Shown in pieces: positions 1,137-52,585 of a stretch of DNA of 64,000 nt. The stretch lies in contig CM000429.1 of the NCBI GenBank assembly GCA_000165345.1, positions 352,001 to 416,000 of the forward strand. Direction: 5' to 3'. A program made the position numbers and the translations under genes. The notes under the pieces were generated by a model that did not search any database, was not told the DNA's origin, and saw nothing but the letters and a program-made list of their open reading frames with translations. Position 1 is the stretch's first letter, and each line of letters starts with the position of its first letter.

Positions 1137-1147
1137 TTTGGCGCCAC
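1137..1147. promoter_or_regulatory. E2F-type site TTTGGCGCCAC in the divergent promoter between the NEK kinase and the 1409 gene.
   Basis: Exact match to the E2F consensus TTTSGCGC. It contains the TGGCGCCA core reported as over-represented upstream of Cryptosporidium cell-cycle and DNA-replication genes. It lies about 190 bp upstream of the kinase ATG. Confidence 0.45.
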
Positions 1148-1408
1148 ATCACATGCTTTATCCATCAAATAAAGTCTCAATAGAAAATTAATTTGGTTGA
1201 GAAAAGTCACAAAAATTTTGATGGATCCTGGGTAAAACTCGTCGGAGTGTTCTTTTGCAAGTTTATTAACGATTTAAAAGAAGGAAGCGGCGGTAAGTAC
1301 CGTTGTTCCATTGGCGCTACCGACAAATCAAAGCGATAAGGAAATAACAACAGCAATAAATTGACTTAAAAGTTTGCTTGAACAAAGTAAAATTTGAATT
1401 TAATCACA

Positions 1409-3136: not shown

Positions 3137-3507
3137 GCATGCAATTGTTTACATGCATGCACATAGTCACCGCCTAAACATTATAAAATTAATAGCAAAT
3201 TTAATAAAAAATAATTAAAGTAAAGGCAGAATATACCATTGATTTTGAGAAACTCTCAATCAAATTTGTGAAAATAATTTACTCGAAAATAAGCCCTGCA
3301 GCTAAAAGAAAATGAAAATCTACTGCAAACATGTAGAGAAACTAAACAAAAGGGATTAAAGCTCAGTTGCATGCGCTCTAAAATAAATATACAAAATTTA
3401 AATAAATTTGTTTATTATCTTTGAAAAAAAATTCTTAAATTTTTTTGCTGTGCATGTGAACCACAAAGAAGAATTGGCGCCCTCATGTGGTCAATGTTTG
3501 CGCATGC
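3137..3507. promoter_or_regulatory. Divergent promoter carrying four exact GCATGC motifs (3137-3142, 3155-3160, 3369-3374, 3502-3507) and a TTGGCGCC box (3474-3481).
   Basis: GCATGC / TGCATGCA is the ApiAP2-type motif over-represented upstream of apicomplexan genes. The region lies between the 3057(-) gene start and the 3626(+) gene start. Confidence 0.4.
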
Positions 3508-3625: not shown

Positions 3626-6600
3626 ATGTTAGTTATTACAGAGAAAATCTATCATATAAAACTACTGGTGATATTTCTCGTAATAATAATCAAAATAGGC
3701 GTGGTAAATACTGAACATGATTTGGTTTGTCCAATTGGATATATTTTAGAAGGAAATCATTGTAAATTGTGCGAATCTGGTACATTTTCAAATAAAGAAA
3801 CAAATAGTTGTACAGCTTGTGGAGAAGGTAAATATTCATTTCCAGGAAGCTATTCTCAATCTTTATGTTTCCAATGCTCAATAGGAACTTACTCAGAAAA
3901 AGAAAAATCAAATAGCTGTGAAATTTGTCCAAATAATCAGATTACATCAACTATTGGTTCAACAAAAAAAGAGGATTGTTTTTGTATGCCTGGCTTTAAG
4001 CCAGCAAGTCTAAGAGATGAAACTTGCGTTCAATGCGCTTCAACTGAGTGGTGTTATAGAGTGTCTCCTAATTCCGGAGGGTTTTGGAATGTAGCATCTT
4101 ATTGCTATAGTGTAGATTTAAGTAAATATTCAAAAGACTCGACAACACATTTACTTTGTAATGATATGTCTTTGATGAGCTCAAAAACGGCAAATTTTCA
4201 AATTCCATGTTTTGGAAGTCAATGTGAAAGCTTATACAGGAATAACGAGGTAATTTCAAATAACAATATTAATTCACTTATGGTAGTTAGATGTAAAGAA
4301 GGCAGTTCTGGTTTCCTTTGCGATGATTGCGAGGATGGTTATGCAAAGATAGATGGGTTATTGGGAGAAGTTGGTTCATGCAAAAAATGCAGTTTATTGA
4401 ACTTCACGCCATTTATTTTAAGTAATTTATTTATTTTTGGTTTAATTATTTACTCTGTTTGGGTCTTGCGTTTGGAACCAACTGCAAATGAAGAAGAAAT
4501 GCCTATTGTTCAAGTTACAATTATTAGAACAACTATCCAACACATGCAGTTTCTGGGTCTGCTGATTACAACTAATGTGGTAAGGTTCGAGTATTTTCCA
4601 AATTTAACAGTTGCAATTTCATATTTAGGATCGAGTAACTCTTTTTTACCACTTTTTCAATGTTTATTGTCAAAGTTTGGTATTGATAGACATGGCCCAG
4701 AAGCTTTGAAGATATATTCAATTGTTATATCAACTATGCCTTTTCTCCTTATTATTTTTGCCATAATTGCTGCCCCAATTCTAAGATATTTTAGGGAGAA
4801 AGAGGTTAGAGGTTTTTTATTAGGACGACAAGAAATGGAAGGAGAATGTCTACAATTTCAGAAGTCATATTTTTCTTGGGTTTTTAGCTTATTTATTGTA
4901 TCCTTTTTCTGTTATTTTTCAATGAGTATCAAAAATATTTATTCAATTATTAGTTGTACATCGCTTAACATTGACATTCAAAACCCCACTAATTCATTAA
5001 TGGGTAGTTACGTAACGCCAGAAAGTATGAATTTATTTCAAAATACAAATAATGAAATTCCTGGATTATTATCGGTTGTTTCAATTGCGAAAGAAAATAT
5101 TTGTTGGAGTCATGGACATTTTGTCGCCATATTTTACTCTCTCATTGGTTTAGTCTTCTGGCATATTTTAATACCTATTGTATACTTGCTTTGCATTTAT
5201 TTTGATACAAAAAATGACAAAATTCAACGTAGGAGACTAGTATATGGGTGGTGGATAAGTGGATATGAAAATACAAATATGAATATTTGGGAGATCACTA
5301 CTTATTTGAGTCAAATAATTTACTTGATAGTGATACTCTTGATTGGAATACTTCATACATTTAATTACGTTGTTGCGTATTATGCAGTTCCGGGTGGCTC
5401 ACATTATGAGACTTTAAATCCGCTTTGTTCTCCAATTTTGTCATCATTTTGTTGTATTGTGTTGACTATTTCCTTGGACAGTATTTATAGCTTTGTGAGG
5501 CCAAATTCTCAAGACTTTTTGCGTACAGGCATTCAAAAAGTTGATATTTCTTCAGTAGGCGTCGAAGATGAACTACTAACAGAAGAACAAAAGCAAAAAC
5601 AGAAAGTTGCTTATGGAGGAGTGAATTCAAAACAAACAAGTAGATTGAATTGGAGTTCGTATTTTTATTTTATTCGTCGAATGTCAAGCTTTTCAATTAT
5701 TACAGTCATTTTTGCATCAATACTGCCAAGACTAAATGTAAACATAGAAAATAAGATTGAAAACCTTAGAGGAACATGGATAGATTCTGTGGATACAAGT
5801 CTTATACCACTGGGATATGGAGATTTTTCTATCCGTTTTTTTTCAATATTTTCAGTTATAGTAAATTATTTTTTTATTTTTATAATACTATTTTCGGTAT
5901 TAGGGATAAAGATATACAAAAGGGTTTTGCCGATGCTATCATCAAAATCAAAAGTAGAAGTAAATATCAAGTCAATGAGTGATTTTGCAAGCAGCTCCGA
6001 TTCAATTAAGCAAGTAAACAAGGGAAATCAAGTCAATGGAAGAATTTCTAATATTGGAAATGCATTTGTATCATATCATGATATGAACAAGACTAGTCAA
6101 ATAGGAGATCAAGATGGAGAAAGAGTTGATGACGAAATTTCAATAGAACAACTTATCAGAATGCACTTAAGAACGGATTGTCTGGGGTTTTTATCGCATG
6201 AAGATCGTGTATCTGTTGTGGTCGCAATAAAAAGATGTGATAATCGACAGGAAGGGTTGGCAATTTCACTTAGAGCAACATTAGATTCTAGATTCGGTGA
6301 AAGTGGTAAATATACGTTAATTGAAAATAATTTATTTGTTTGTGAGTCTCTAAGAAGCTATGGATTTTCAGATTTTGGAATGGAGAAATTGATTGAAGAT
6401 TTAATAGAGATACACATTTCTATCACAAACAGAATTAAAAGTGTTAGTAGGAACTCATTAAAAATGGCATTAGATTTATGTATTATTAATTATCCAGAAG
6501 TTGCACAAAAACTGGGCATGGAAGTGATAGTGCCTCCAGATTTGAATTTAAATAATATGAATGAGAAGTCAAACATTGAAACTAATAATAATACAGAGGC

Positions 6601-9600
6601 GTTATATTCCTTACATCTGAGGAAACTACTTGCAAGGCTAAGTTTAAATGCGCTGATCTTGGACATTAGTGATAACTTCTTTAGAATTCCAAGATCAATC
6701 CCTATTTCATTAAGATTAAAGCTAAATAGAGGAACAGGCCTACTGTTTTCTGAACCTAATTTAGAAAATAATGGAATAGAAAATATGGAATTGAACCACT
6801 CTTTGATTAATGAAGATACTAAGGACAAGAAATACAACGTACCTATTCCTGGGTATATTGAAGAGGAATATAATGAACCAAGATCTTTGGATGTTGACCT
6901 AATGTTATCCATAAAGAAATTAACAGAGTGTGACCCAAGAACTGTCTTGGAAGAAACCAGTCATCCAATAGCATTTGAAAAAGCGACAAGAAACTCGATT
7001 ACAAGTGATAAAGTATTACAGACTTTATTTTCATTAATAGAACCTGAGTTTAAGTCCCAACTTAGAAGTTCATTAGAGCTTAATAAAGAAGAATTAAAAG
7101 AGGGTATTGGAGAATTGGACAGAAATCAGGATGAGGAAATTGTTCAATTGTTGTTAGGACTAAATCCAGACGAAAATATTGGTAGCGAAACAATTCTAAC
7201 ATTACTTAATGATTTAGAAACCATTGGTAATAGTACTTCTGATTATATGGATAATAAATCTCATTTATCTGATTCAGAATTTCATTCCCCAGATGAACAT
7301 AAAGTTAGTTCAGTTTCCAAAAAAATAGGATTTTCTTTAAAAAATTTAAAGAATAAAAATAATACAAAAGGTGATATAGTTAATGAAGATAGTAATGCTG
7401 TTCAATCAAAGAACAAAATGTCTTTAAAGCTAAAAAATTCAATATATAATTTATTTCTACTTAGAGTATTGGATCTAAAGTCATGGTTAAGTCAGTATAG
7501 AAAGCAATATATTGAAGAAACTAATAAGAGAATGGAAAGTTTAAGACAGTACAATTATTTGAATTTTGATAATAATTTTACTATACCACAAGGAAATAAT
7601 ACTAGGAATACTTCAAATACTAGTTCAAGCATTGCAGATAATAATAATAGTAATACCAATGGAGTTAATGAAAATAATAATGGCACTATCAATAATAACT
7701 CAATTATTAAATCAAGTGAATTAGACGTAACAGCTGCTGCTTCTTATTCATCAAAAATAAGTATTGAAGCAAAAGAGAATTTAAAAATGATGACAGATTT
7801 GGTATCAAATTTAAATAGATACGCAAGTCCAAGCATGCTTTTTTATTATTTACAATTATGTAAAAGATTAAGTTTAGGTGCAGATTTTACAATGACTTCA
7901 TTAATACCAGATAATTTGTTGTATAAAGGCGTAATTAGCAATGAAGAGGCATTAAGATTATATAGAGAAATTAATCCTAGTTTGAATTTTAATGATAATC
8001 CTCTTGGCTTTGATGTCGCAACTATTCACGAATTTTCAGCATTGAATACACCTAATTTGAATTTAAAAAGAGAGTTGGAATTGACAATAGAATCACAAAG
8101 AGAGTTTAATATGATTTTTCCATCAGCATTGCCATGTATACATTCAATATTTTGGGTTCCTTTTGATATTTATGATGATGACAATTTATGGATAATTCAA
8201 AGTAGAGAAAGACAGAATATTTCTCAGTTACTAGATTGTTTATCAAAGGATCATCCACAAATAATAGAATTACCATATATTGATGAAGAAGCTATGGATG
8301 AAAAAATGGAATGCGTAGAATTTGATAAAAATGACCAAGGCCTAACTAAACAAACATTGTATACATTATTACCACAAATTTCAAATAATGGAGGAATTGA
8401 AGATGGTTCTTGGCTTTGGAGTGAATTACCGATCAGATTTGCAATTGATTTAAATGGTTTAACAATTAGAAAGATGCATTCATCCTCAAATTATCCAAAA
8501 AGCATTTATTTATCTGGAAACCCATTATCAGTTTTAGGTCCTCAATCACCTCAATGGGCATTTATGAGCCATAAATCAGATAGAATTAATTATTTAAATG
8601 GAGTTTGCACTTTGAATTATAATATTATTAATAACAATAATAATAATAATAATATAGATTTTGATTCAAGCACAATATTTGGTGATCAAGCAATAATTGT
8701 TGCCCCAGGTATAGAAGTTAAAGGAACATCATTTACAATTGAAGTTTGGGTGAAATTGCCCCCGTTGTTTGATAAATTGGAAGAAATTAAAGAAGAAAAA
8801 GAATCGGATTCAGAAGTAAAAAATCAAAAAAGTAAATCAAAGTCTAAATCAAGAGCTAAAAGCAGAACAAAAATGGAGGGAAGAATTAGTTCAAGAGCAA
8901 AAAGTAAAAAGAAAAAAGTAGATATGCTATCTTCAAATAAAGATAAAAATCAATCATTATTAAGTCTAAGTAAATTACAAAAGAAACTTGTTGAAATAAA
9001 AGGAGGGAAAGAAGAAGATGATGAAAATGAACAAGCAAGTCTTGATGGAACAAATTCAGAAATCAGTGGAATTCAAAAAGAATCAGATGATTTAAATAAT
9101 GTTAATATGAAGAAAAAATTAGAATTACCAACATTACAAGTCCTATGTAGTACTGATGCAATGGAAGGATTATTTACAGTACATAGACCAACAGGAACAA
9201 TAGGATTTTGGGATAGTAATGGAAGATTTTTAAAATGCGTAATTAAGAATGATCAAAAAGAAATAAATAAGAATGAAATGCAATTTAAAAATTCTTCTTA
9301 TGTTGCATCTAATATTGCAACATTGCAAAATATTTATTCACAATTAGGATTGATAAAAAGAAGTACCTATTGCAAAGAAACTAATCAAGATATTGAACAA
9401 TTTATTAATTACATTGAAGATCCATTAATTCTTGATCCATGGGTTTTAGTACATATTGTTTATAATATGGGATCAATAAAATATTATGTAAATGGTAGGT
9501 TTATTGGTTCAATTAGAAAACCAAATGGTTTAAAAGGTGATATATCAGTAATTGGAGGAGGATTAGAAAGTGGATCAGGATGGGGTTATTTTAGTCAATT

Positions 9601-12600
9601 TAGAGTTTATGGAGTGCATACAAGTAATGAACAAATAAAAAGACGTTATGAATCATATATTTCACTCAATTCAGATAATTCATTTATTACTAAAATTAAT
9701 AAATTAACATCATCAACAATTAATTGGGCATTAACATTATGGAGAAGTGGTGCTGTAGGATTTTTCATATGGAAATATAGTCAAATAAATTTAAAACAAA
9801 ATGATGTTACGTATTTAATAGAATTAATTAATAGAAAAAGAAATGTTTTATGTAATGGAGATATTGTTGATGAGTCAGATAACGATAATAGCAATTTAAA
9901 AAATGGAATATTACTATTTGGTGTAATTATTAGAATATTAAAAGGAGAAAGATCTTTTCCATATTATTATGTATATGAACCATTACCCTATTTAGAAAGT
10001 ATTCAAGATGAGAACAGTGAAAAAAATGAATCAAATAATAAAATACAATTATCACCCATGAAATATAAAATGACTTCAATAACATCACAATTAGGGTATA
10101 GAATAACCGAAGATTATAAGAAAATTAAATTAGATAATGAAAAAGTATATAGAATGAACCCATTATTTTATCAGCCAAGTATAGTACCTGGCCCAGGAAT
10201 GTCAGAGTGTTTATTATTAGCATTTAACACAAAAAGTAATAATTCTGGATTATTGATAACACCACCAATTGAGTTGCAGAAAAAAATTATAAATAAAAAT
10301 AGAAATGCAAAGAATTCTATGAATAAAGATGATCAGAAAAAAAAAGGTAATGGTTTATTGAATGGTAATTTTGATGAAAAAAATGATGAAATATCAGAAA
10401 TTTCAGAATGTTATAATGGTTGGACAATAACTGTATGGTTTCATTATCCATTACTAACAAATTATTCATATACAATAAATAATTCTTCGAATCAAAATGA
10501 TGAGGATATGGTTACGAATAATTCCAAGAAAAAATCTAACTCAGATATTGATCATTATATAGTATTAGTAACGGGTAAAAATGATTCACATATAATAATA
10601 AATGAAAATATGGATGTTGGAGTATACAAAAACTTTTCACAGATCAGCAATAATAATATTAATATTAATAATAATAATAATAGTAATAATAGTAGTAATA
10701 ATAATAATAATTATAATTATTATAATAATTATAATAATAATAATAATAGTAATAATAATAATAATAATAATTACAATAATTACAATAATAATTATTATAA
10801 TAATAATTATTATAATAATTATAATAATAATATTAATATTAATAATAACAATTATATTAATAATAATACAAGCAATTATATTGAAAAGGGCTTTTATTCA
10901 TCTGGGTTTAATTTAAATAAATCAGAATTGCCTATCGGTTGGCATATGTTAACGGTTGTCGGTAAACCAAGAATGGAATATACAAAAACGGAAGATGAGA
11001 AAGAAAGGAGTATAGTTGGAGGAGGAGGATTAGGTTTCACGGAAATTACTAAGCCTATGCAGAAAAATATTAATTTATCAACACAATATAAGTGGTGCCA
11101 AGAATTTTATATTGACGGACAAATTATGGGTATTAGCTCATATTGTACCCATGAAAGTATTGTTATGATTGGAAATAGTTTATTTTTAGAAAATGCATTT
11201 GGAATATTTACATGTCCAAGAATTTTTAGTCACTCATTCTCACCGATGGAAATACATACTGATTTTTTGTCTTACAATTATTTAATAAAAGCAGGAAGTT
11301 GGAATTCAAAAGATGATATTTTATTACAATTTGATTATAACTCTATTACAAAGGAATTTCGTGTATTAGAAAATCCAAGCAACAAATTAAGATATATTTA
11401 TAATTTTGGTTCATCCCAATACTCGAATAAATATGATCAATTAAAAAATGTAACAAAAGACAGACGAAAAAAGAAAAAAAAACAATTATTAGAGGGAAAC
11501 TTGGAAATTGATGACCAATCTTATTGGTTAGATGAGATGGAATGCCAATCACCTTTGTTTAATTATATTGAAACATTTTTGAATAATAACTCATTTGATA
11601 ATGAAGCTAAATATATAATGGCAATAAGTAATAGCATGATTAATCAATCTGAAAGTGAAAGTAATAATAATAATGATAGTGCTAGCAATAATGTTAAAAC
11701 AAATAAGATTAATGATATTCTTGAAAATTTTTCAAATATTAACAAAAATAATAAAGAAGAAGTATGCCAAATAAATGTAAAAAATAATGGCATTATTACT
11801 ATTCATAGAGGGCCAACCAATGAAAATATATGTATTGACCCAACTCAAATTTTTATTCTAGAAAAAAAATCGGGATATTCGACAGAAGGTGGGAGTGTAA
11901 TATTAGAAAGGCCAGTAAGATTAAGTAAGAATTGGTCATGTGAAGTTTGGTTTTATGTTCCTTTTGAGATAACATTTCATCCTTATTGTTTGATATCAAA
12001 TAGTGACGGTATAGGATTTATTGTAATAGGTTTAAATGGTGAATTGGGATCAATACAAAGAAAAATAACAAATATGTATGAAAATAATGGTGTGATTTCT
12101 AAGAAAAATAATAAATATGATTCAAAAGGATATGAAAAGAATAATAATCGATTACAATTTTTATCTTGGGATGTAAATTTGAGAGATCATGTTGATGTTG
12201 GTTGGTACCATATGGTTGTTACATTTAATACAACGCAAAATAACACAATAACAACTTATATTAATTCTCAATGTATTGGAAAGAAGATGAATGCGTTTGA
12301 ATTACCACATCATCAAAGTCCATGGATTGACTGTATTGGTAATTTAAAATCATTCAAAGGAAATTACATTGCACCATTTGGACTATTTGGGCATTTAAAA
12401 ATATATGATTTTGCATTGTCTACGATAGAGGTCGGATTATTGTACAAAAGTTGGATGTGCCATAAAAATTTAAAGAAAGAAATATTAAATCGTCACATTA
12501 AACAAGAAAAATCTGCAATAACTAAGAACTACACTTTGTACAAAAATTTAATGAACAAAAATAATAATTTCAAGGAAGAGGAACGATCTGAAAACAAGGA

Positions 12601-19641: not shown

Positions 19642-20829
19642 TTAATGCAAGAAGTTATCCACAATACTTGTGGGGTTGTTAATGTTAGGTGGTTGCATAG
19701 GCTGTTTCATGGGAGACATGGTTTGCCTGATCTCTTCTAATATATTTGCGTGGCCATTAATGACGTCAACATTAAGCTGTGAGGACTGATGCTTTAGTAG
19801 AATGCTCCAATGAGAGTCTAAAATTTGTGATTGAACTGAAATCATACCGCTTTCAGTATGGCTATTTTTAGTTCTTAGAATAGAATTTAGTAGTTGATAG
19901 GAGTGCTGGTTGGGATTTAAAGTGATAGACGAGTCTATGGGCATAGATATAGAAACGATTGTGTTAGTGTTTACAGGGCACAATTTTGAAAGGGTTTCTC
20001 TGTCAGCATATAACAATCCTTGCTCTTGCCCTACCTGAATAAGCTCCTGAATCGAATCTTTGATTTTTGATATAGCTTGTTCCAGCTCTAATTGAGACTT
20101 TGTGTAAAAGATAATATTTTCATCATTCTCTTCATCTTGCAAAAGTCCAGAGCTCATATCCATATTAAGCTTATAAATATTATGCCTAGGTTTAGTGAAT
20201 AATCCTACTGCTTCAAGTACATTAGTAATATCGTAAAGCCTTCTTCTAGGCACCCCGAGTTTATTTTCTACACTTTGTAGATCAATTTCATATTTTGGGC
20301 TTTGTTTTGCATATTCAATAACCTTTTCAGTAAGTAATAATAAACCACTTTCTGCTCTAGATTGTTCAGAACCTAATTGAGGGCTTTGTCTAGAAGTTAG
20401 TGATGGCGATAAACTCCTCGGAGAGCTAGACGGGCTATTTGAATAATAAGGAGAAGACTGATGATATGAATTTGGAGAATATGGGTAGTTCATATGTGGC
20501 GGCGGCGAAGTCGATGATCTCCTAATATTTGAAGAATTCCGACTTGCTCTTGCAGGACCAGACTGTATTGGAGGGATATCACTAATTAAATTTCTAGATG
20601 GAATGTTAGTCAAAGATGAACTTTTCATCATTGTATATCCAGAAACACAACTGCTTTCACTAAAAATGCTGTCAGATCTATATAGCATACCTGCATTATT
20701 TACTGGGTTGTCATTGTATAACAAAATATTTTCTTCAAAGTTTGGAGAGTTAATTGGCGAATAATCGTATTGTTGAATGTAAGAGCCATCCTGGAGTGTT
20801 CCCAACTCGCCTTGTTGGCTGTGCTGCAT
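19642..20829 (-). CDS. E2F: E2F-family transcription factor with a winged-helix E2F/DP DNA-binding domain.
   Basis: LLTEKVIEYAKQSPKYEIDLQSVENKLGVPRRRLYDITNVLEAVGLFTKPRHNIYKL contains the RRRxYDITNVLEGI signature of the E2F DNA-binding domain (nt ~20154-20346). The N-terminus is Ser/Pro/Tyr-rich and low-complexity. Confidence 0.8.
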   Translation of the reverse strand: MQHSQQGELGTLQDGSYIQQYDYSPINSPNFEENILLYNDNPVNNAGMLYRSDSIFSESSCVSGYTMMKSSSLTNIPSRNLISDIPPIQSGPARASRNSSNIRRSSTSPPPHMNYPYSPNSYHQSSPYYSNSPSSSPRSLSPSLTSRQSPQLGSEQSRAESGLLLLTEKVIEYAKQSPKYEIDLQSVENKLGVPRRRLYDITNVLEAVGLFTKPRHNIYKLNMDMSSGLLQDEENDENIIFYTKSQLELEQAISKIKDSIQELIQVGQEQGLLYADRETLSKLCPVNTNTIVSISMPIDSSITLNPNQHSYQLLNSILRTKNSHTESGMISVQSQILDSHWSILLKHQSSQLNVDVINGHANILEEIRQTMSPMKQPMQPPNINNPTSIVDNFLH

Positions 20830-21206
20830 TGGCTACTTTAATTTTTACTCAAATTTGAACTATCCTATAAAATCTTAAATTATTAGCCCTAACCGCTGTT
20901 CTCTAAATTGACCTGTGCAAAACGAATTTGCGAGGAGCGCCAGAAATAAGGCGCCTTGGTGCTTTTTGCGGTTAATGTAAATTTAGCCCCAATATAAGGT
21001 TTAGTAGCAATTAATTTGAGCAAATTTTTTACTTCAGAGAATAATTTTTTTGCAGTAAATAATATTGACTGCACTCATTGATTATATCGCTCAATTCTGA
21101 TATAGTTTGTTTGGAAAGGCGAGGCCTACTTAATTGGTTTCTCATTTTAGGGAGAGGGGCTAAAAGAATTAGACAACAGTTTCTATTCCGAATTTAGCTG
21201 GTAAAA

Positions 21207-22955
21207 ATGTCATCTTCACGTTCAAACTCGCCATATGATACAGATAGGCATAGAGGAAACTATGAATGGGAGGATAATGATAGAAGGAGAGTTGCAGATA
21301 ATGAGGGGCGCAGAGATCGCGACTTTGACAGTGAAAGAGGAAGAAGGCGTGAGCACTATGGAGGAAGAGATAGAAGAAGAGATTTCAGAAGAAGATCAGT
21401 AGAGAACTCAAGAGGTGGGAGGCATAGGGATGATGAAAACATGGATAAGGGTAAAAATGATGATCAGAATAATTCTCAATGGGAGCGTGAACGCGAAAAA
21501 GAAAGAGACAGAGATAGGGAAAGAGATAGAGAAAGAGATAGAGATAGAGATAGAGATAGAGATAGAGATAGAGATAGAGATAGAGAAAGAGATAGAGAAA
21601 GAGATAGAGAAAGAGATAGAGAAAGAGATAGAGATAGAGAAAGAGATAGAGATAGAGAAAGAGATAGGGAACGAGATAGGGATAGGTACAAAGAAAAAAT
21701 TAAAGATAGAGGATATATGGAAAAGAAGCGATCAAAAGGTTATCGATCAAAAAGGAGATCATCTTCTGTATCTTCAGATGACTCAGATTTGCCCCCAAGG
21801 AGATACAGAGAATTCAAAAGCAGAAATAGGAGGCGTAGAAGAAGTGTTTCTAGCTCTAGGTCATCTAGTGAGGTAAGCAGTTCTTCTGAATATGAAAGGC
21901 GCGACAGAAACTACGAAAGAGGCCGTGGAAGAGATAGGGATCGTTACAAAAGAAGCCGAAGAAATTATTCTTCTGATGAATCTTCTCCTGAGCGAGCCTA
22001 CAGACACAGGGAAAACAAGTATAGTAAAAAACATAAAAACTATTATTCTGAATCAGGATCTAGCTCTGATTCAGAAATCGATCGATCTGGACATAAGAGG
22101 CGCCATGAACCAGACAATTACGACTGGAAAGATAGATCAAAAGACTTTCATGTAGATATCCAAGAGGAAAACCATTCATCAAAGAAATGGCAGCCAGCCT
22201 CTAGCAGCTCAGTTGAGAAAGAAGGATCCGGCTACACTTCAAAGAATAATGTAGATACTTCCAGGAATAATACTAATGTTGAACTGAATAATTACAATTC
22301 AAGTTATGAAGAAGGCATCCCAGAAAACTCCACATGTGTGACTCTTTGTGAGAGGTTAATGGATATTAGAAATATGAGCGAGCCTCAAAGATGTAATAAG
22401 TCAATTGCCAAACTTCTAGATTTGATCCTTGACAATAGCGACGAATTTTTGGCTGAAGATACTGCTGGGAGAGAGCTCACTAAACAACAATTTATTACAT
22501 GGTTTGTAATAAACCAGCAAAATGGTCCCTCTATTGCTGATTCTGAAGTTACATCTTCCAAAATGGAAAATAGGAGGCAAAGGTTTACTAGGGTGAACAA
22601 AAGATTGTTTACCGAGATATCCTCTTCTGAATCATATTCGTTAGACTTTGAAGAATTAAGGGACAAAGAATCTGATGAAACTATTAATACTCAAATAGTC
22701 CTTTATGGATGCAAAAAAGGAAAGCTAATAAGAGTTTATGTTATTAAAGACAAGGATGACCTTACTATGAAGGATAACATATCTCTTAACAAGCTAAAAA
22801 GTCATAAGATTTTTGCTGTTTTTCTTAGATACTTACAAAAGAAAGGAATAAAATACCCGCGTAATAACTACGGAAATGATGAGGACCAAAATCCACATTT
22901 TGACGGGGTCTTTCACTACTACGACTTTGTCAACAATCAAAATATAATAGAGTAA
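21207..22955 (+). CDS. SR-related protein with long (RD/RE)n and RS-rich low-complexity regions and a structured C-terminal domain of unknown type.
   Basis: N-terminal [30 protein letters not shown], then about 60 RD/RE dipeptides, then [11 protein letters not shown] and [27 protein letters not shown]. The C-terminal ~180 aa is non-repetitive. Confidence 0.65.
21500..21690 (+). repeat. Hexanucleotide (GAGATA/GAGAAA)n microsatellite encoding (RD/RE)n.
   Basis: Direct visual repeat agagatagagatagagat... The antisense frame gives (LS)n, which explains the spurious 21476..21691 ORF. Confidence 0.9.
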
Positions 22956-26322: not shown

Positions 26323-26789
26323 CACCATAATTTTAGAAAGTTTAATTGTGACTGAATTTTTATTGACTGCTATAGATGCCCTCCTTTACTGTATGGCTTC
26401 GAAAATATTCGATAGTGCGTGCTAATCCAACCCTTGAATTCCCTGTTAGGATTCCCAAATATGTACATTTCTGTTATAGGCTACTGCTCTTCATTACTTT
26501 GATTTCTTAGCTTCGCATTCTCTACAATATAATTTATACAAGTTCATTATTGGCGCTCACAAAAGCTCCATCAGAGAGGCGCGGATTGACTGTTTTCAAC
26601 TTGACAGTTTGTGGAAATCAATAGTCAGACCGCACCGTTCATTAAAGGCAGCAATTGAACTCGACTTAGAGTTGAATCGAAACTGATCCTTCTCATTCAT
26701 TTGTATACTGTGAATACGAATATGAGATTTTGACTGCTTTACATTAAAATTTTTGCAAGTTAATAAGGTATCGTGATTATTTGGCTTCA

Positions 26790-30604: not shown

Positions 30605-30784
30605 AGCGACATAAATTTTTATTTTCGATTAAATAAATTCTTTGGTTGTGGAATTCTCATATATTAGTGTTTTTAACAAAAAGTGAATATTAGTTTATGA
30701 ATAGTTAGAATATAATTTTAAAAAAAAAATTAATCCGGAAAATTTCAACAAGTTAAAAATAGACCCTTTCTGGGATTTAAAAAG

Positions 30785-30857
30785 TGCTCAAACCAGGATT
30801 CGAACCTGGGTCGCCGCGGCCACAACGCGGTGTACTAACCACCTATACGATTTGAGC
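30785..30857 (-). tRNA. tRNA-His: tRNA-His (anticodon GUG), 73 nt including discriminator A73.
   Basis: Reverse complement: GCTCAAA-TC-GTAT-AGGTGGTTA-GTAC-A-CCGCG-TTGTGGC-CGCGG-CGAC-CCAGG-TTCGAAT-CCTGG-TTTGAGC-A. This gives a perfect 7-bp acceptor stem, a GTTCGAATC T-loop, and the anticodon GTG at positions 34-36. Confidence 0.9.
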
Positions 30858-31061: not shown

Positions 31062-31559
31062 CTAATAATAATGATTATTAGCTGAACTCTTTTTCTTTTG
31101 TTTTTTGTTACGGCTTTTGATCTCTCCTAATGCTCTTGCAGTGCTTTCTGCTATGAACTCCTTTGAAACTTTATTTTGATAAGATTTGCAGCCTATAGAG
31201 TTGTTGCAGCCATTATTTACAATCTCCTCAACTTCCTCTATCTTTCTTAAAGAATCTCCTAAACCAAACTCCTTGAGAATTTCATCTATATCGTCATCCA
31301 AAGCGTTGAGCTTTTGTTGTCTTCTAGCTGCACGTGAACATTTACCTTTAATTAAAGGAAGAAATATATTTGAAGACTCTATTTCTAGGAAATGATCGCT
31401 TTCTAGTTCATTGAGTTGTTCAAGTTGCTGCTCAACTGAAGTTTTGTTCGGTAAATTATCTTCATTAAGAAAAACGTGATCATCCTCCTCAATATCCGCC
31501 CACCTAATCTCTCTTTTCATCATGGAAGTCCGTCCAATCCCAATAATGTTCGAGCTCAT
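31062..31559 (-). CDS. Hypothetical small acidic/basic protein of about 165 aa.
   Basis: The track ORF begins at TTG, and the first ATG is at 31559 (MSSNIIGIG...). It has a basic C-terminal tail (KSRNKKQKKK). Confidence 0.4.
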   Translation of the reverse strand: MSSNIIGIGRTSMMKREIRWADIEEDDHVFLNEDNLPNKTSVEQQLEQLNELESDHFLEIESSNIFLPLIKGKCSRAARRQQKLNALDDDIDEILKEFGLGDSLRKIEEVEEIVNNGCNNSIGCKSYQNKVSKEFIAESTARALGEIKSRNKKQKKKSSANNHYY

Positions 31560-32023
31560 CTCCCACAATTCTCTCCCTCCTCCTCAGTATGTAGCCTATA
31601 ATATATATTATTCAAATATTCTAAAATGATTCACGGCTATAATTAGTAATTTATTATGAAACTTTCAGTTATAAACCATTACTTTGACATTATTTCTGGG
31701 CGCCGCCTGTTTATAATTTTTTTTTTCCTAAATATTTTTGGGAATTACTTTAGAATTAATTTATCAAAGATTTTAATATTAAGTTCTTCCCATTGAATAA
31801 CCTCAAATGTATTGATACGCTAATTAGTCTAATATGTGACAGAAGATTAATACCGAGCCTGAATTTATTTTCATTACTCTGGAAAACAAAACAATTCAAA
31901 AATTGTCTTTATTATTGTTACTCATAAATATGGTGTAAGTTACTATCTAATATTGCCTTTTTGGTAAATGTTAATTAGAAGTTAAAAATGGGGATAATGT
32001 TTTATCGACCATTTTTGTTTTGA

Positions 32024-50254: not shown

Positions 50255-52585
50255 TTAAGATAGCTTACAGAATCCATTAGAATATGAGTCATACCAAAGG
50301 GGATTTTGCCATGTGTCAATGCAAGAAATTGATGAGGAATCAAAGTCCCAGGAATTACAATCATTTTGACTTGAGCTTTCATCTTCTTGCTGAACTTCTG
50401 CAGAGTATACAGTTGGAAGGGTACAAGATACAGATGAATTAAAGAACTTTGAACCAACTGAATAATGAGGGACAGAGGTCGAAGCTTCAGAGCTTATTGG
50501 ATTTTTATCTGTTGTTGGAATACAAAACATATCAATGTTTAAATAATCACAATTCCATGACTCTGTAGCAACCAAGTGCTTGTTAAAGATTGTATAATTC
50601 ACTTGATCATGTTCTATTTGCTCGTTATTCTGAGACAAGGTATTATGGGTGTCCTGATCCAATTGGAAGGATGACAGCGTTTCCGCCTTTTCCTCATTTT
50701 CCGTACTATTGGAATTTCCAACACAAGAACTCAACCCTACCGAAGATTGTACGGTCGTCTCTTCGCTCCATCGGCTTGTTTCAGTGTTAGAATAAAAGTA
50801 TGTCCCAGAAGAAATATACATTGTTTTGTTTGGATCTTCTAAAAATGGTCCATCATAGGTTGAGAAAGACTGGCATGGAGAGGAGGTATAAGAAGAAATA
50901 TTACAGTAATTTGTGTTAGGCGAAACTGTGGTAGATGCTTGATGATGGACAGGCGTTGAAACAGAAAACTTATTACCAGAAACCATGCTATTCCTGCTAT
51001 CCGAACACTTTCTGGATAACACACTATTGCTCAATTTACCTCCAATCCGACTTGGATATGAGTCAATACTTGAACTTTGCGTTGGACTTTGGTGTATACT
51101 ATTTATAGGGCTTTCCTCTGCATTACTTACAACATTCAGTTTTAAGCAATTTCCTCCATAAGATTCTTCGATACCTACCATTATATTGTTTTCGCCAGTG
51201 TTCAAACCGCAATTAACATCGAATGAAAGTTGCTCACTGATTGAAAAGTTTTCTGCAAAGCTGTGCCTTTCATCTACATGAGTTTCGGTTAATTTGTTAC
51301 CATCAATAAAAATATTTTGAGCACAGTGATTGTTTATTTCTAACAGCGAGCTTTTTGAACTGCTATTTTTGTAATTCATTCCGGTTGTATTGGCCTGGCT
51401 GCATACATCAATTGAAGGTTTATCAATAGAAATATTACTATAACCGCAATGTAATCCTACCTCGCTTGAGCCAGAAACTAACTTCCCTGATCCTTCTGGA
51501 ATATCATTGGTAACTGTATTCGTTAATGAAATGCCTTGAAACCCAATTATTGAAGAACAATAACATCGCTGATTATTACCGCATGTTTGGCAATCAAATG
51601 TAGAGTTAGAACAAGCTAGATTCGAACTCGCCGAGTAAGGTGATGACCTAAATGAGATTGGTTTGATGCATTGGCCATTATTAATCGCCGCATTAAGATT
51701 ACAACTTGCTGGATCATTTTTCAAGTTATCATTGGGAACATAAGCGTTCAAATTTTCAGTAAGGTCATGAGAGATAGCTTTACGGTCTTTGTTAACTGCA
51801 TTATTCATTATTGAAACATTTCTACCGTTTGCCACTAAATTTTTACCAACAATTCCACTTATTTTATATCCCACTCCGCCCATTCCTCTTGAATAACTTT
51901 GCCTTTGAGAATCATAATTTTCCTTATTCATTCCTATTTTTTGTGTTTTTAATAGCCCAATAGTTGAACAATTCAAATTATTGTTCATACCTATCTGTAA
52001 AGGTAAACATTTACCATCACGTTTTTTTCTTTGCTTCATCCAACAAGCATTACAGACCCTTAACTTTGATTCGACCGAACATACCGAAATATATCTCCAC
52101 TGAGGAGTTTTTGTAGCAGAGCAAATCTGACAAAAGTAATCAGACCTGTCTAGGGGTGGCCTTCCTGCCCTCCTCTCATTTGTTTGTTTAAGTTTACTAT
52201 CCATATTTTTCATTGATTGAATTTCAGTATCAAAATACCTGGTATTTTTATATCCAAAAATCATGTCTCCCTCACTATTACCATCGCCACCTACATTTCG
52301 CACTGAATCTATCAATATACGATCACCCGATATAACATTATTTAATGGCTGTTGTCCTAACATATTAAGAAAAGGATAATTCTCAAGGCATTGAGAGTCG
52401 CCAGATAAAGTTCTTGTGCCAATGAGAGACTGATCATCAGATAATATATCACAGGATGTTAAGTTAGTCAAAATATTGCTCCTTTTAACTAGCTTTTCAT
52501 CTTTGCTTTGAATAATATTTTCAATAAGAGGAATAGCAATGGACCCACCATTCATATTTCGATTAGTTTCAATTTGCGATTTCAT
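50255..52585 (-). CDS. GATA-type zinc-finger transcription factor (776 aa) with long Ser/Asn-rich regions.
   Basis: CQICSATKTPQWRYISVCSVESKLRVCNACWMKQRKKR (nt ~52043-52132). It has the GATA hallmarks CxxC...TPxWR...CNAC and a basic tail. Confidence 0.7.
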   Translation of the reverse strand: MKSQIETNRNMNGGSIAIPLIENIIQSKDEKLVKRSNILTNLTSCDILSDDQSLIGTRTLSGDSQCLENYPFLNMLGQQPLNNVISGDRILIDSVRNVGGDGNSEGDMIFGYKNTRYFDTEIQSMKNMDSKLKQTNERRAGRPPLDRSDYFCQICSATKTPQWRYISVCSVESKLRVCNACWMKQRKKRDGKCLPLQIGMNNNLNCSTIGLLKTQKIGMNKENYDSQRQSYSRGMGGVGYKISGIVGKNLVANGRNVSIMNNAVNKDRKAISHDLTENLNAYVPNDNLKNDPASCNLNAAINNGQCIKPISFRSSPYSASSNLACSNSTFDCQTCGNNQRCYCSSIIGFQGISLTNTVTNDIPEGSGKLVSGSSEVGLHCGYSNISIDKPSIDVCSQANTTGMNYKNSSSKSSLLEINNHCAQNIFIDGNKLTETHVDERHSFAENFSISEQLSFDVNCGLNTGENNIMVGIEESYGGNCLKLNVVSNAEESPINSIHQSPTQSSSIDSYPSRIGGKLSNSVLSRKCSDSRNSMVSGNKFSVSTPVHHQASTTVSPNTNYCNISSYTSSPCQSFSTYDGPFLEDPNKTMYISSGTYFYSNTETSRWSEETTVQSSVGLSSCVGNSNSTENEEKAETLSSFQLDQDTHNTLSQNNEQIEHDQVNYTIFNKHLVATESWNCDYLNIDMFCIPTTDKNPISSEASTSVPHYSVGSKFFNSSVSCTLPTVYSAEVQQEDESSSQNDCNSWDFDSSSISCIDTWQNPLWYDSYSNGFCKLS

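Follow-up and report, generated by a model that had tools for sequence, protein, structure and literature searches.

The 64,000-nucleotide window analysed here (assembly GCA_000165345.1, contig CM000429.1, positions 352,001 to 416,000) encodes an E2F-family transcription factor of Cryptosporidium parvum and carries, upstream of many of its genes, short GC-rich boxes built on a GGCGC core. The core is enriched in spacers that hold promoters, and its position relative to start codons is conserved between species. These boxes probably represent a genus-wide E2F-like proximal promoter element which is bound by E2F/DP and which counts the E2F gene itself among its targets. A sequence-only reading of the same stretch had proposed something narrower, namely a small E2F regulon comprising a cell-cycle kinase and a proteasome-lid subunit, with possible autoregulation resembling that of the classical metazoan E2F1 promoter.

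In the mechanism we propose, boxes of the GGCGC, GGCGCC and TTTGGCGC types would form one E2F-like element, typically situated ~60-260 bp upstream of start codons and often present as a separate box for each gene of a divergent pair. The coiled-coil region following the DNA-binding domain would pair with a DP protein whose gene lies outside this window, and the heterodimers would bind the boxes and, chiefly in sporozoites and early asexual stages, activate or allow the expression of a substantial fraction of genes. The E2F gene may itself be a target by way of a pair of boxes at about -110 and -125, separated by 13-15 bp; E2F-family feedback could then take the form of auto-regulation or of cross-regulation by a second E2F. 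What the data show are the identity of the gene, the DNA-binding fold of its product, the enrichment of the motif, its confinement to promoters and the conservation of its position between species; we infer which factor binds the boxes, whether it activates or represses, and the feedback.

The E2F gene and its product

The open reading frame (ORF) at 19642-20829 on the minus strand encodes a protein of 395 amino acids (aa) whose translation contains RRRLYDITNVLE and is identical to the C. parvum entries EAK88437.1 and QOY43472.1. Pfam E2F_TDP (PF02319, cut-off 25.7 bits) scores 60.7 bits over aa 160-220, in agreement with the E2F-family DNA-binding domain of the sequence-only reading, and the same family is matched in all ten Cryptosporidium orthologues. 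Identity with the C. hominis protein is 99%, orthologues were found in at least ten Cryptosporidium species, and the top protein matches outside the genus are E2F1 and E2F3. Judging the chromosome from the protein match, we take the ORF to be the chromosome-1 E2F of C. parvum, one of two annotated typical E2F factors in this species. That gene is named cgd1_1570 in two papers (PMC3734150, PMC11337648) and cgd1_1560/cpbgf_1001560 in a third (PMC12246861), so that its locus tag differs between papers.

The winged-helix DNA-binding domain (aa 160-220, including RRRLYDITNVLE; 20170-20352, minus strand) is supported by Pfam, by alignment and by a structural model. Residues 156-217 align with the DNA-binding domain of human E2F4 (1cf7_A), and both RRxYD and, at the N-terminal end, SR.E..L.LLT with its N-terminal Arg are retained. 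The recognition motif is of the E2F type (YDITNVLE), unlike that of DP, with PRRRLYDITNVLEA aligned to KRRIYDITNVLEG of E2F4. Across ten Cryptosporidium species RRxYD is invariant and the domain as a whole almost so. In the AlphaFold (AF2) model, the overall predicted local distance difference test score (pLDDT) is 43, and confidence is confined to aa 155-222 (76-86) and to a long helix at aa 236-269 (65-76; 20022-20124, minus strand), which occupies the position of the E2F coiled-coil dimerisation region. Foldseek superposes the confident part of the model on 1cf7_A with a template modelling (TM) score of 0.84, a root-mean-square deviation (rmsd) of 1.8 A and 38% identity, its other matches being generic winged-helix proteins with E > 0.001. 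In a profile search of the PDB, E2F4 and E2F8 were matched through their DNA-binding domains alone, and no coiled-coil/marked-box (CC-MB) structure was among the matches.

With its single winged-helix domain, in which RRxYD is intact, the protein is a typical E2F and therefore not of the E2F7/8 type. No DP-domain match appeared in the Pfam scan of the protein, and no DP gene lies in the 64-kb window; the DP genes of C. parvum are cgd7_3650 and cgd8_1850 (PMC12246861; 10.1101/2025.01.17.633476). The literature also bears out the earlier statement that Cryptosporidium retains E2F/DP, which the other studied apicomplexans lack (PMC3734150, PMC12246861).

Enrichment of the core in intergenic spacers

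At ~31% G+C, the window is crowded with long ORFs. Counted over its whole length, TTSSCGC occurs 11 times against 6.4 expected, a value which 6 of 100 shuffles reach and which is not significant because the signal emerges only once coding DNA is excluded. We therefore compared the intergenic spacers (8.95 kb in total) with 500 dinucleotide-preserving shuffles. None of the shuffles reached the observed counts for GGCGC (16 against 2.74 expected), GGCGCC (4 against 0.28), TGGCGC (7 against 0.96) or TTSSCGC (6 against 1.35). Among control words in the same spacers, GGCC was depleted and GCAGC and GGAGC were without significant enrichment. The density of the core is 1.79/kb in spacers and 0.24/kb in coding DNA, and none of the seven convergent (3'-3') spacers of the window contains it.

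An unbiased ranking of 5-mers and 6-mers in promoter-bearing spacers placed GGCGC first among 5-mers, with GGGGG/GGGGGG, GGCGCC, GGCGG and GCATG/TGCATG also at the top. These words correspond to the published E2F-like, G-box and AP2_1 families of C. parvum (PMC3734150). The other two families are as strongly enriched as the E2F-like core, both as G-runs (GGGGG, 24 against 5.0; GGGGGG, 17 against 1.6) and as TGCATG/GCATGC (19 against 3.3; 8 against 1.1).

Of the 27 genes in the window, 11 have the strict core in the 400 bp before their start, or 15 if GGCGG and GCGCGC variants are admitted, the nearest site lying at a median of 164 bp. Among the genes so marked are those for a DDRGK protein, a CCCH zinc-finger protein and a very large Ephrin_rec_like/Laminin_G protein, as well as the neighbours of a secreted protein. 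This breadth bears directly on the idea of a small dedicated regulon of the NEK-type kinase and Rpn5 combined with E2F1-style autoregulation. In favour of that idea, the NEK and Rpn5 promoters hold the two best canonical TTTGGCGC sites of the window, both intergenic and conserved, and the E2F promoter itself has two boxes. Against it, the 11-15 marked genes are functionally unrelated, and equally deep conservation is found upstream of the neighbours of the secreted 277-aa protein and of a 3,008-aa extracellular protein. Published data extend the point genome-wide, since E2F-like motifs are overrepresented upstream of 2,379 genes in 163 of 200 expression clusters (Oberstaller 2013, PMC3734150). 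The pairing of NEK with Rpn5 thus amounts to a selection from a general element. Furthermore, repression and derepression of the E2F1 type would require Rb, for which no orthologue is known (PMC3734150). We consider a dedicated regulon very improbable, contradicted as it is by the breadth of the motif.

Conservation across the genus

The syntenic locus was compared with that of nine further species (C. meleagridis, chipmunk genotype I, C. ubiquitum, C. canis, C. felis, C. ryanae, C. xiaoi, C. andersoni and C. muris), the NEK end being compared in C. felis, C. ryanae and C. muris. Pooled over the ten species, the density of GGCGC in promoter spacers is 1.58/kb, compared with 0.22/kb for coding DNA and 0.09/kb for convergent spacers. 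The seven-fold enrichment of promoters over coding DNA is repeated in each species, and composition-matched GC-rich controls are flat.

Within the spacers upstream of E2F and Rpn5, conservation across the ten species is highest at the boxes, and the spacing between the ATG and the Rpn5, NEK and 3474 sites is preserved out to C. muris. When 96 GC-rich 5-mers were scored for positional retention over four lineages (parvum, felis, ryanae, muris), only E2F-like words (GCGCC, CGCCA) and G-box words (CCCCA, CCCAC) were kept in at least 2 of 11 promoters. The absence of a box is conserved too: the divergent spacer between the DUF2009 and WD40 genes lacks the strict core in all ten species. By the measure of this comparative evidence, the boxes appear functional and under purifying selection across the genus.

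The boxes might be no more than random recurrences of a short GC-rich word, or might simply reflect base composition, a view for which the unremarkable whole-window count of TTSSCGC speaks. It is at odds with the spacer counts, which no shuffle reproduced, with controls that are flat or depleted, with convergent spacers empty of the core, and with sites that stand out as conservation peaks in otherwise diverged spacers. We give this explanation almost no credence and reject it on the spacer shuffles, the conservation windows, the ten-species densities and the positional retention.

The promoter of the E2F gene

Two boxes stand 108-126 bp upstream of the E2F ATG, as the sequence-only reading had noticed in the gene's own upstream spacer, where GAGCGCCAGAAATAAGGCGCCTTGG is located within 20935-20965. 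Box A (AAGGCGCCTT, 20948-20957) has a palindromic GGCGCC core at 121-126 bp from the ATG, and its AGGCGCCT is a perfect fit to the published C. parvum consensus [A/T][C/G]GCGC[G/C][A/T] (PMC12246861). Box B (TTTCTGGCGCTCC in the E2F sense; 20934-20946, minus strand) lies at 108-112 bp, and its TGGCGCTC fits the same consensus at seven of eight positions. TGGCGCTC is also the most conserved 8-bp window of the spacer (0.85 against a spacer mean of 0.51). Neither box fits TTTSSCGC.

All eight species of the intestinal clade have boxes in this promoter, and in six of them these lie at -107 to -129 and 13-15 bp apart. The GGCGCC of Box A is kept in C. meleagridis, chipmunk genotype, C. ubiquitum and C. 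canis, with a GCGCC core in C. felis; the second box has degenerated to GCCGC in C. canis. In C. ryanae and C. xiaoi the boxes have turned over yet persist.

Autoregulation of the E2F gene is plausible on this arrangement and has already been proposed in a preprint, which reports that the E2F/DP genes carry E2F motifs and "may autoregulate" (10.1101/2025.01.17.633476). The upstream region of cgd1_1570 is a moderately active promoter in transfection (PMC11337648), so that binding and feedback are directly testable.

Other elements share this spacer. A perfect 7-bp inverted pair, TAACCGC...GCGGTTA (20890-20896 and 20968-20974), flanks the boxes, and both arms are kept in alignment as far as C. 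canis. The CGGTTA it contains fits the Myb core CNGTTR. ACCGC/GCGGT is enriched in promoter spacers (13 against 3.6 expected), and the full 7-mer is not enriched over the window (4 against 2.06, reached by 16 of 100 shuffles). Divergent from E2F, the ORF at 21207-22955 on the plus strand encodes an Arg/Ser/Asp/Glu-rich protein with no Pfam domain, its ATG ~250-270 bp from the boxes; a 12/18-bp tandem repeat at 21495-21685 encodes (DRER)n.

The binding factor

Several observations weigh against the boxes being a genus-wide target of E2F/DP. Firstly, many boxes lack the T-run of TTTSSCGC, which only two sites in the window fit. Secondly, PF16421 (E2F_CC-MB, cut-off 33.9 bits) is weak on the C. 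parvum protein, with 18.1 bits over aa 246-313, and the marked-box region is modelled with low confidence (pLDDT <50). Matches to this family do occur in 8 of 10 orthologues at E<=0.1, below or near threshold, the best at E = 1e-6. Thirdly, a 2025 review finds very few putative Cryptosporidium regulatory components experimentally confirmed (PMC12246861). Fourthly, genes of all expression profiles carry the motif upstream, a breadth unusual for a stage-specific factor (PMC3734150). Finally, the consensus core is absent within 500 bp of the E2F ATG in C. muris and C. andersoni, where only AAACGCC at about -150 is present.

Much of this would equally suit a general functional element to which some protein different from E2F/DP binds, or one that is GC-rich and serves to exclude nucleosomes or as part of the core promoter in an AT-rich genome, its likeness to an E2F site being coincidental. 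In favour of this reading, the motif is near-ubiquitous and tied to no single expression profile (PMC3734150), many of its instances are bare GGCGCC palindromes with no T-run, and its position relative to the ATG is constrained in the manner of a core element. However, RRxYD and the fold match E2F4, a recogniser of a CGCGCG-type core (Zheng 1999 as cited in PMC3734150), and Cryptosporidium alone among the studied apicomplexans has E2F/DP (PMC3734150). The ApiAP2 domains that yielded motifs on protein-binding microarrays bound other motifs and not the E2F-like one (PMC4117751), and composition-matched GC-rich controls are not enriched. We thus regard a different binder or a coincidental likeness as a serious but minority possibility, and continue to favour E2F/DP.

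The gastric-clade promoter deserves separate attention. A loose 4-mer search of the E2F promoter and ORF start in this clade found no hidden boxes, and TCGCGA and GGCGGC occur in the C. muris and C. andersoni spacer beside the divergent neighbouring gene. The DNA-binding domain of these two species is essentially identical to that of the others despite the box-less promoter. With no consensus core in the gastric-clade E2F promoter, feedback is not genus-wide. A tentative refinement, which we hold to be rather doubtful, is that a position-constrained box is kept across the genus for genes of any function, with E2F feedback specific to the intestinal clade, through a gain in that clade or a loss in the gastric one. 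If true, this would amount to the rewiring of a master-regulator loop within a genus.

The E2F gene, the motif and the proposed feedback are already published. Among upstream motifs in C. parvum the E2F-like one ranks first in abundance, its clusters peak at every time point (PMC3734150), and it is dominant in sporozoite peaks from the assay for transposase-accessible chromatin with sequencing (ATAC-seq; Xiao 2025 preprint, 10.1101/2025.01.17.633476). Our additions are modest: footprinting of one locus across the genus, the retention of distances to the ATG, and a gastric-clade E2F promoter without a consensus box. The window contributes no new kind of element, but does offer two well-footprinted test sites, the paired boxes at 20934-20957 and the invariant Rpn5 site (14584-14595). 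As no other apicomplexan genus is known to have kept E2F/DP, and as no promoter motif of Cryptosporidium is commoner than the E2F-like box, the identity of the binder is a central question of gene regulation in this pathogen.

Boxes upstream of other genes

A string check found the four motif strings of the sequence-only reading exactly where it had placed them, and its NEK and Rpn5 gene assignments hold. Canonical TTTSSCGC has two matches in the window, at 1137 and 14584, both intergenic. The latter, TTTGGCGCGCAA (14584-14595, plus strand), is a canonical E2F-type site ~157-168 bp upstream of the ATG of Rpn5/PSMD12 (12748-14427, minus strand). The core is present in this spacer in all ten species, whose alignment contains a sole cluster of invariant columns, TTGTCTT.GCGC.GCCAAA; GCGCCAAA is the top conserved window (0.95 against a mean of 0.41).

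The Rpn5 upstream region looks like a composite promoter. TTGTCTT (Rpn5 sense, 14596-14603) abuts the E2F-type site with a conservation of 0.93 over six lineages, and a C-rich G-box, CCCCACAA (conservation 0.90), lies ~45 bp nearer the ATG.

At the left end of the window, TTTGGCGCCAC (1137-1147, plus strand) lies ~183-193 bp upstream of the NEK-type kinase (minus strand, ATG at 954), whose ORF runs off the window edge. An E2F-like core is found at -170 to -191 in all four lineages compared, as GGCGCC at -174 in C. felis, CCGCCA at -170 in C. ryanae and GCGCGG at -190 in C. muris. The divergent 245-aa gene (1409-2146) has its own box, TTGGCGCTAC (1311-1320, plus strand), ~96 bp upstream; with counterparts at -96 in C. 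felis, -81 in C. ryanae and -128 in C. muris, the range over four lineages is -81 to -128. Between this gene and NEK, C. muris has an additional 399-aa gene.

The third site of the sequence-only reading, TTGGCGCC (3474-3481, plus strand), is ~145-152 bp upstream of the gene for the 3,008-aa extracellular protein with Ephrin_rec_like and Laminin_G domains (3626-12652, ATG at 3626). Its GGCGCC is found at -145 in C. parvum, -146 in C. felis, -166 in C. ryanae and -155 in C. muris. The coding region of this gene contains 73 AAT repeats (poly-Asn) at 10649-10868.

Further boxes include two GGCGC cores (26552 and 26578; 26552-26582) in the divergent spacer between the CCCH zinc-finger gene and a 192-aa gene, where cores are present in six of eight intestinal-clade species. 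A GGCGCC at 31699-31704 lies ~144 bp upstream of a 165-aa gene (31062-31559, minus strand), and a GGCGC at 61919-61923, between the divergent DDRGK and 512-aa genes, is at -105 and -62 from the two ATGs.

Inside the DUF2009 coding region, TTCGCGCCAA (18872-18881) is a good bipartite E2F-type site with a second TTCGCGC nearby at 19079-19085. The two could be chance occurrences, or could belong to an internal or antisense promoter; E2F motifs have been reported from long non-coding RNA promoters of C. parvum (PMC7840661).

Other features of the window

At 50255-52585 on the minus strand the window encodes another putative transcription factor of 776 aa, in which a GATA zinc finger scores 28.6 bits (cut-off 26.8); the spacer upstream of its gene has a GCGCC core only at -505. 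A tRNA-His (GTG) gene occupies 30784-30857 (minus strand) between an RPA43-like gene and the 165-aa gene. The 3' ends of a 1,808-aa ORF (54233-59659, plus strand) and a HAD-hydrolase ORF (59652-60896, minus strand) overlap by 8 bp at 59652-59659.

The spacers flanking the RS-rich gene and E2F measure 1.4-1.6 kb in C. andersoni and C. muris, against 93-344 bp in intestinal species. These long 'convergent' spacers, at 6409-7792 and 6114-7644 and at 11237-12812 and 11234-12809 of the C. andersoni and C. muris loci, respectively, may hold uncalled genes or non-coding RNAs.

Comparison with known systems

The mammalian E2F1 promoter is autoregulated through paired E2F sites near its start site, and the likeness claimed for it by the sequence-only reading is only partly sustained. 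Both E2F genes do have a proximal promoter in which two E2F-type boxes stand close together. The C. parvum boxes are, however, GGCGCC and TGGCGC rather than paired TTTSSCGC, and their position is measured here from the ATG. The analogy is further limited because no orthologue of Rb or another pocket protein is known in C. parvum (PMC3734150), which leaves the Rb axis missing, and because the boxes are conserved only in the intestinal clade, C. muris and C. andersoni being without them.

Compared with metazoan and plant E2F1-6, as represented by the E2F4-DP2-DNA complex (PDB 1CF7), the protein is alike in its single winged-helix domain with RRxYD, in the identity and modelled rmsd to the E2F4 domain given above, in a helix at the place of the leucine-zipper/coiled-coil, and in having DP partners annotated in the literature. 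It differs in a low-complexity Ser/Pro-rich N-terminus of ~155 aa, in a marked box that is weakly detectable, in the lack of a recognised pocket-protein-binding transactivation motif and in the Rb orthologue that the literature does not record. Its apparent targets comprise most of the genome, as opposed to a G1/S set.

The closest counterpart is the published E2F-like family of C. parvum (Bankier 2003 as cited; PMC3734150; 10.1101/2025.01.17.633476). The organism, the motifs ([A/T][C/G]GCGC[G/C][A/T], TGGCGCCA and GGCGGG), the restriction to upstream regions and the proposed trans-factors are all the same, and nothing essential differs.

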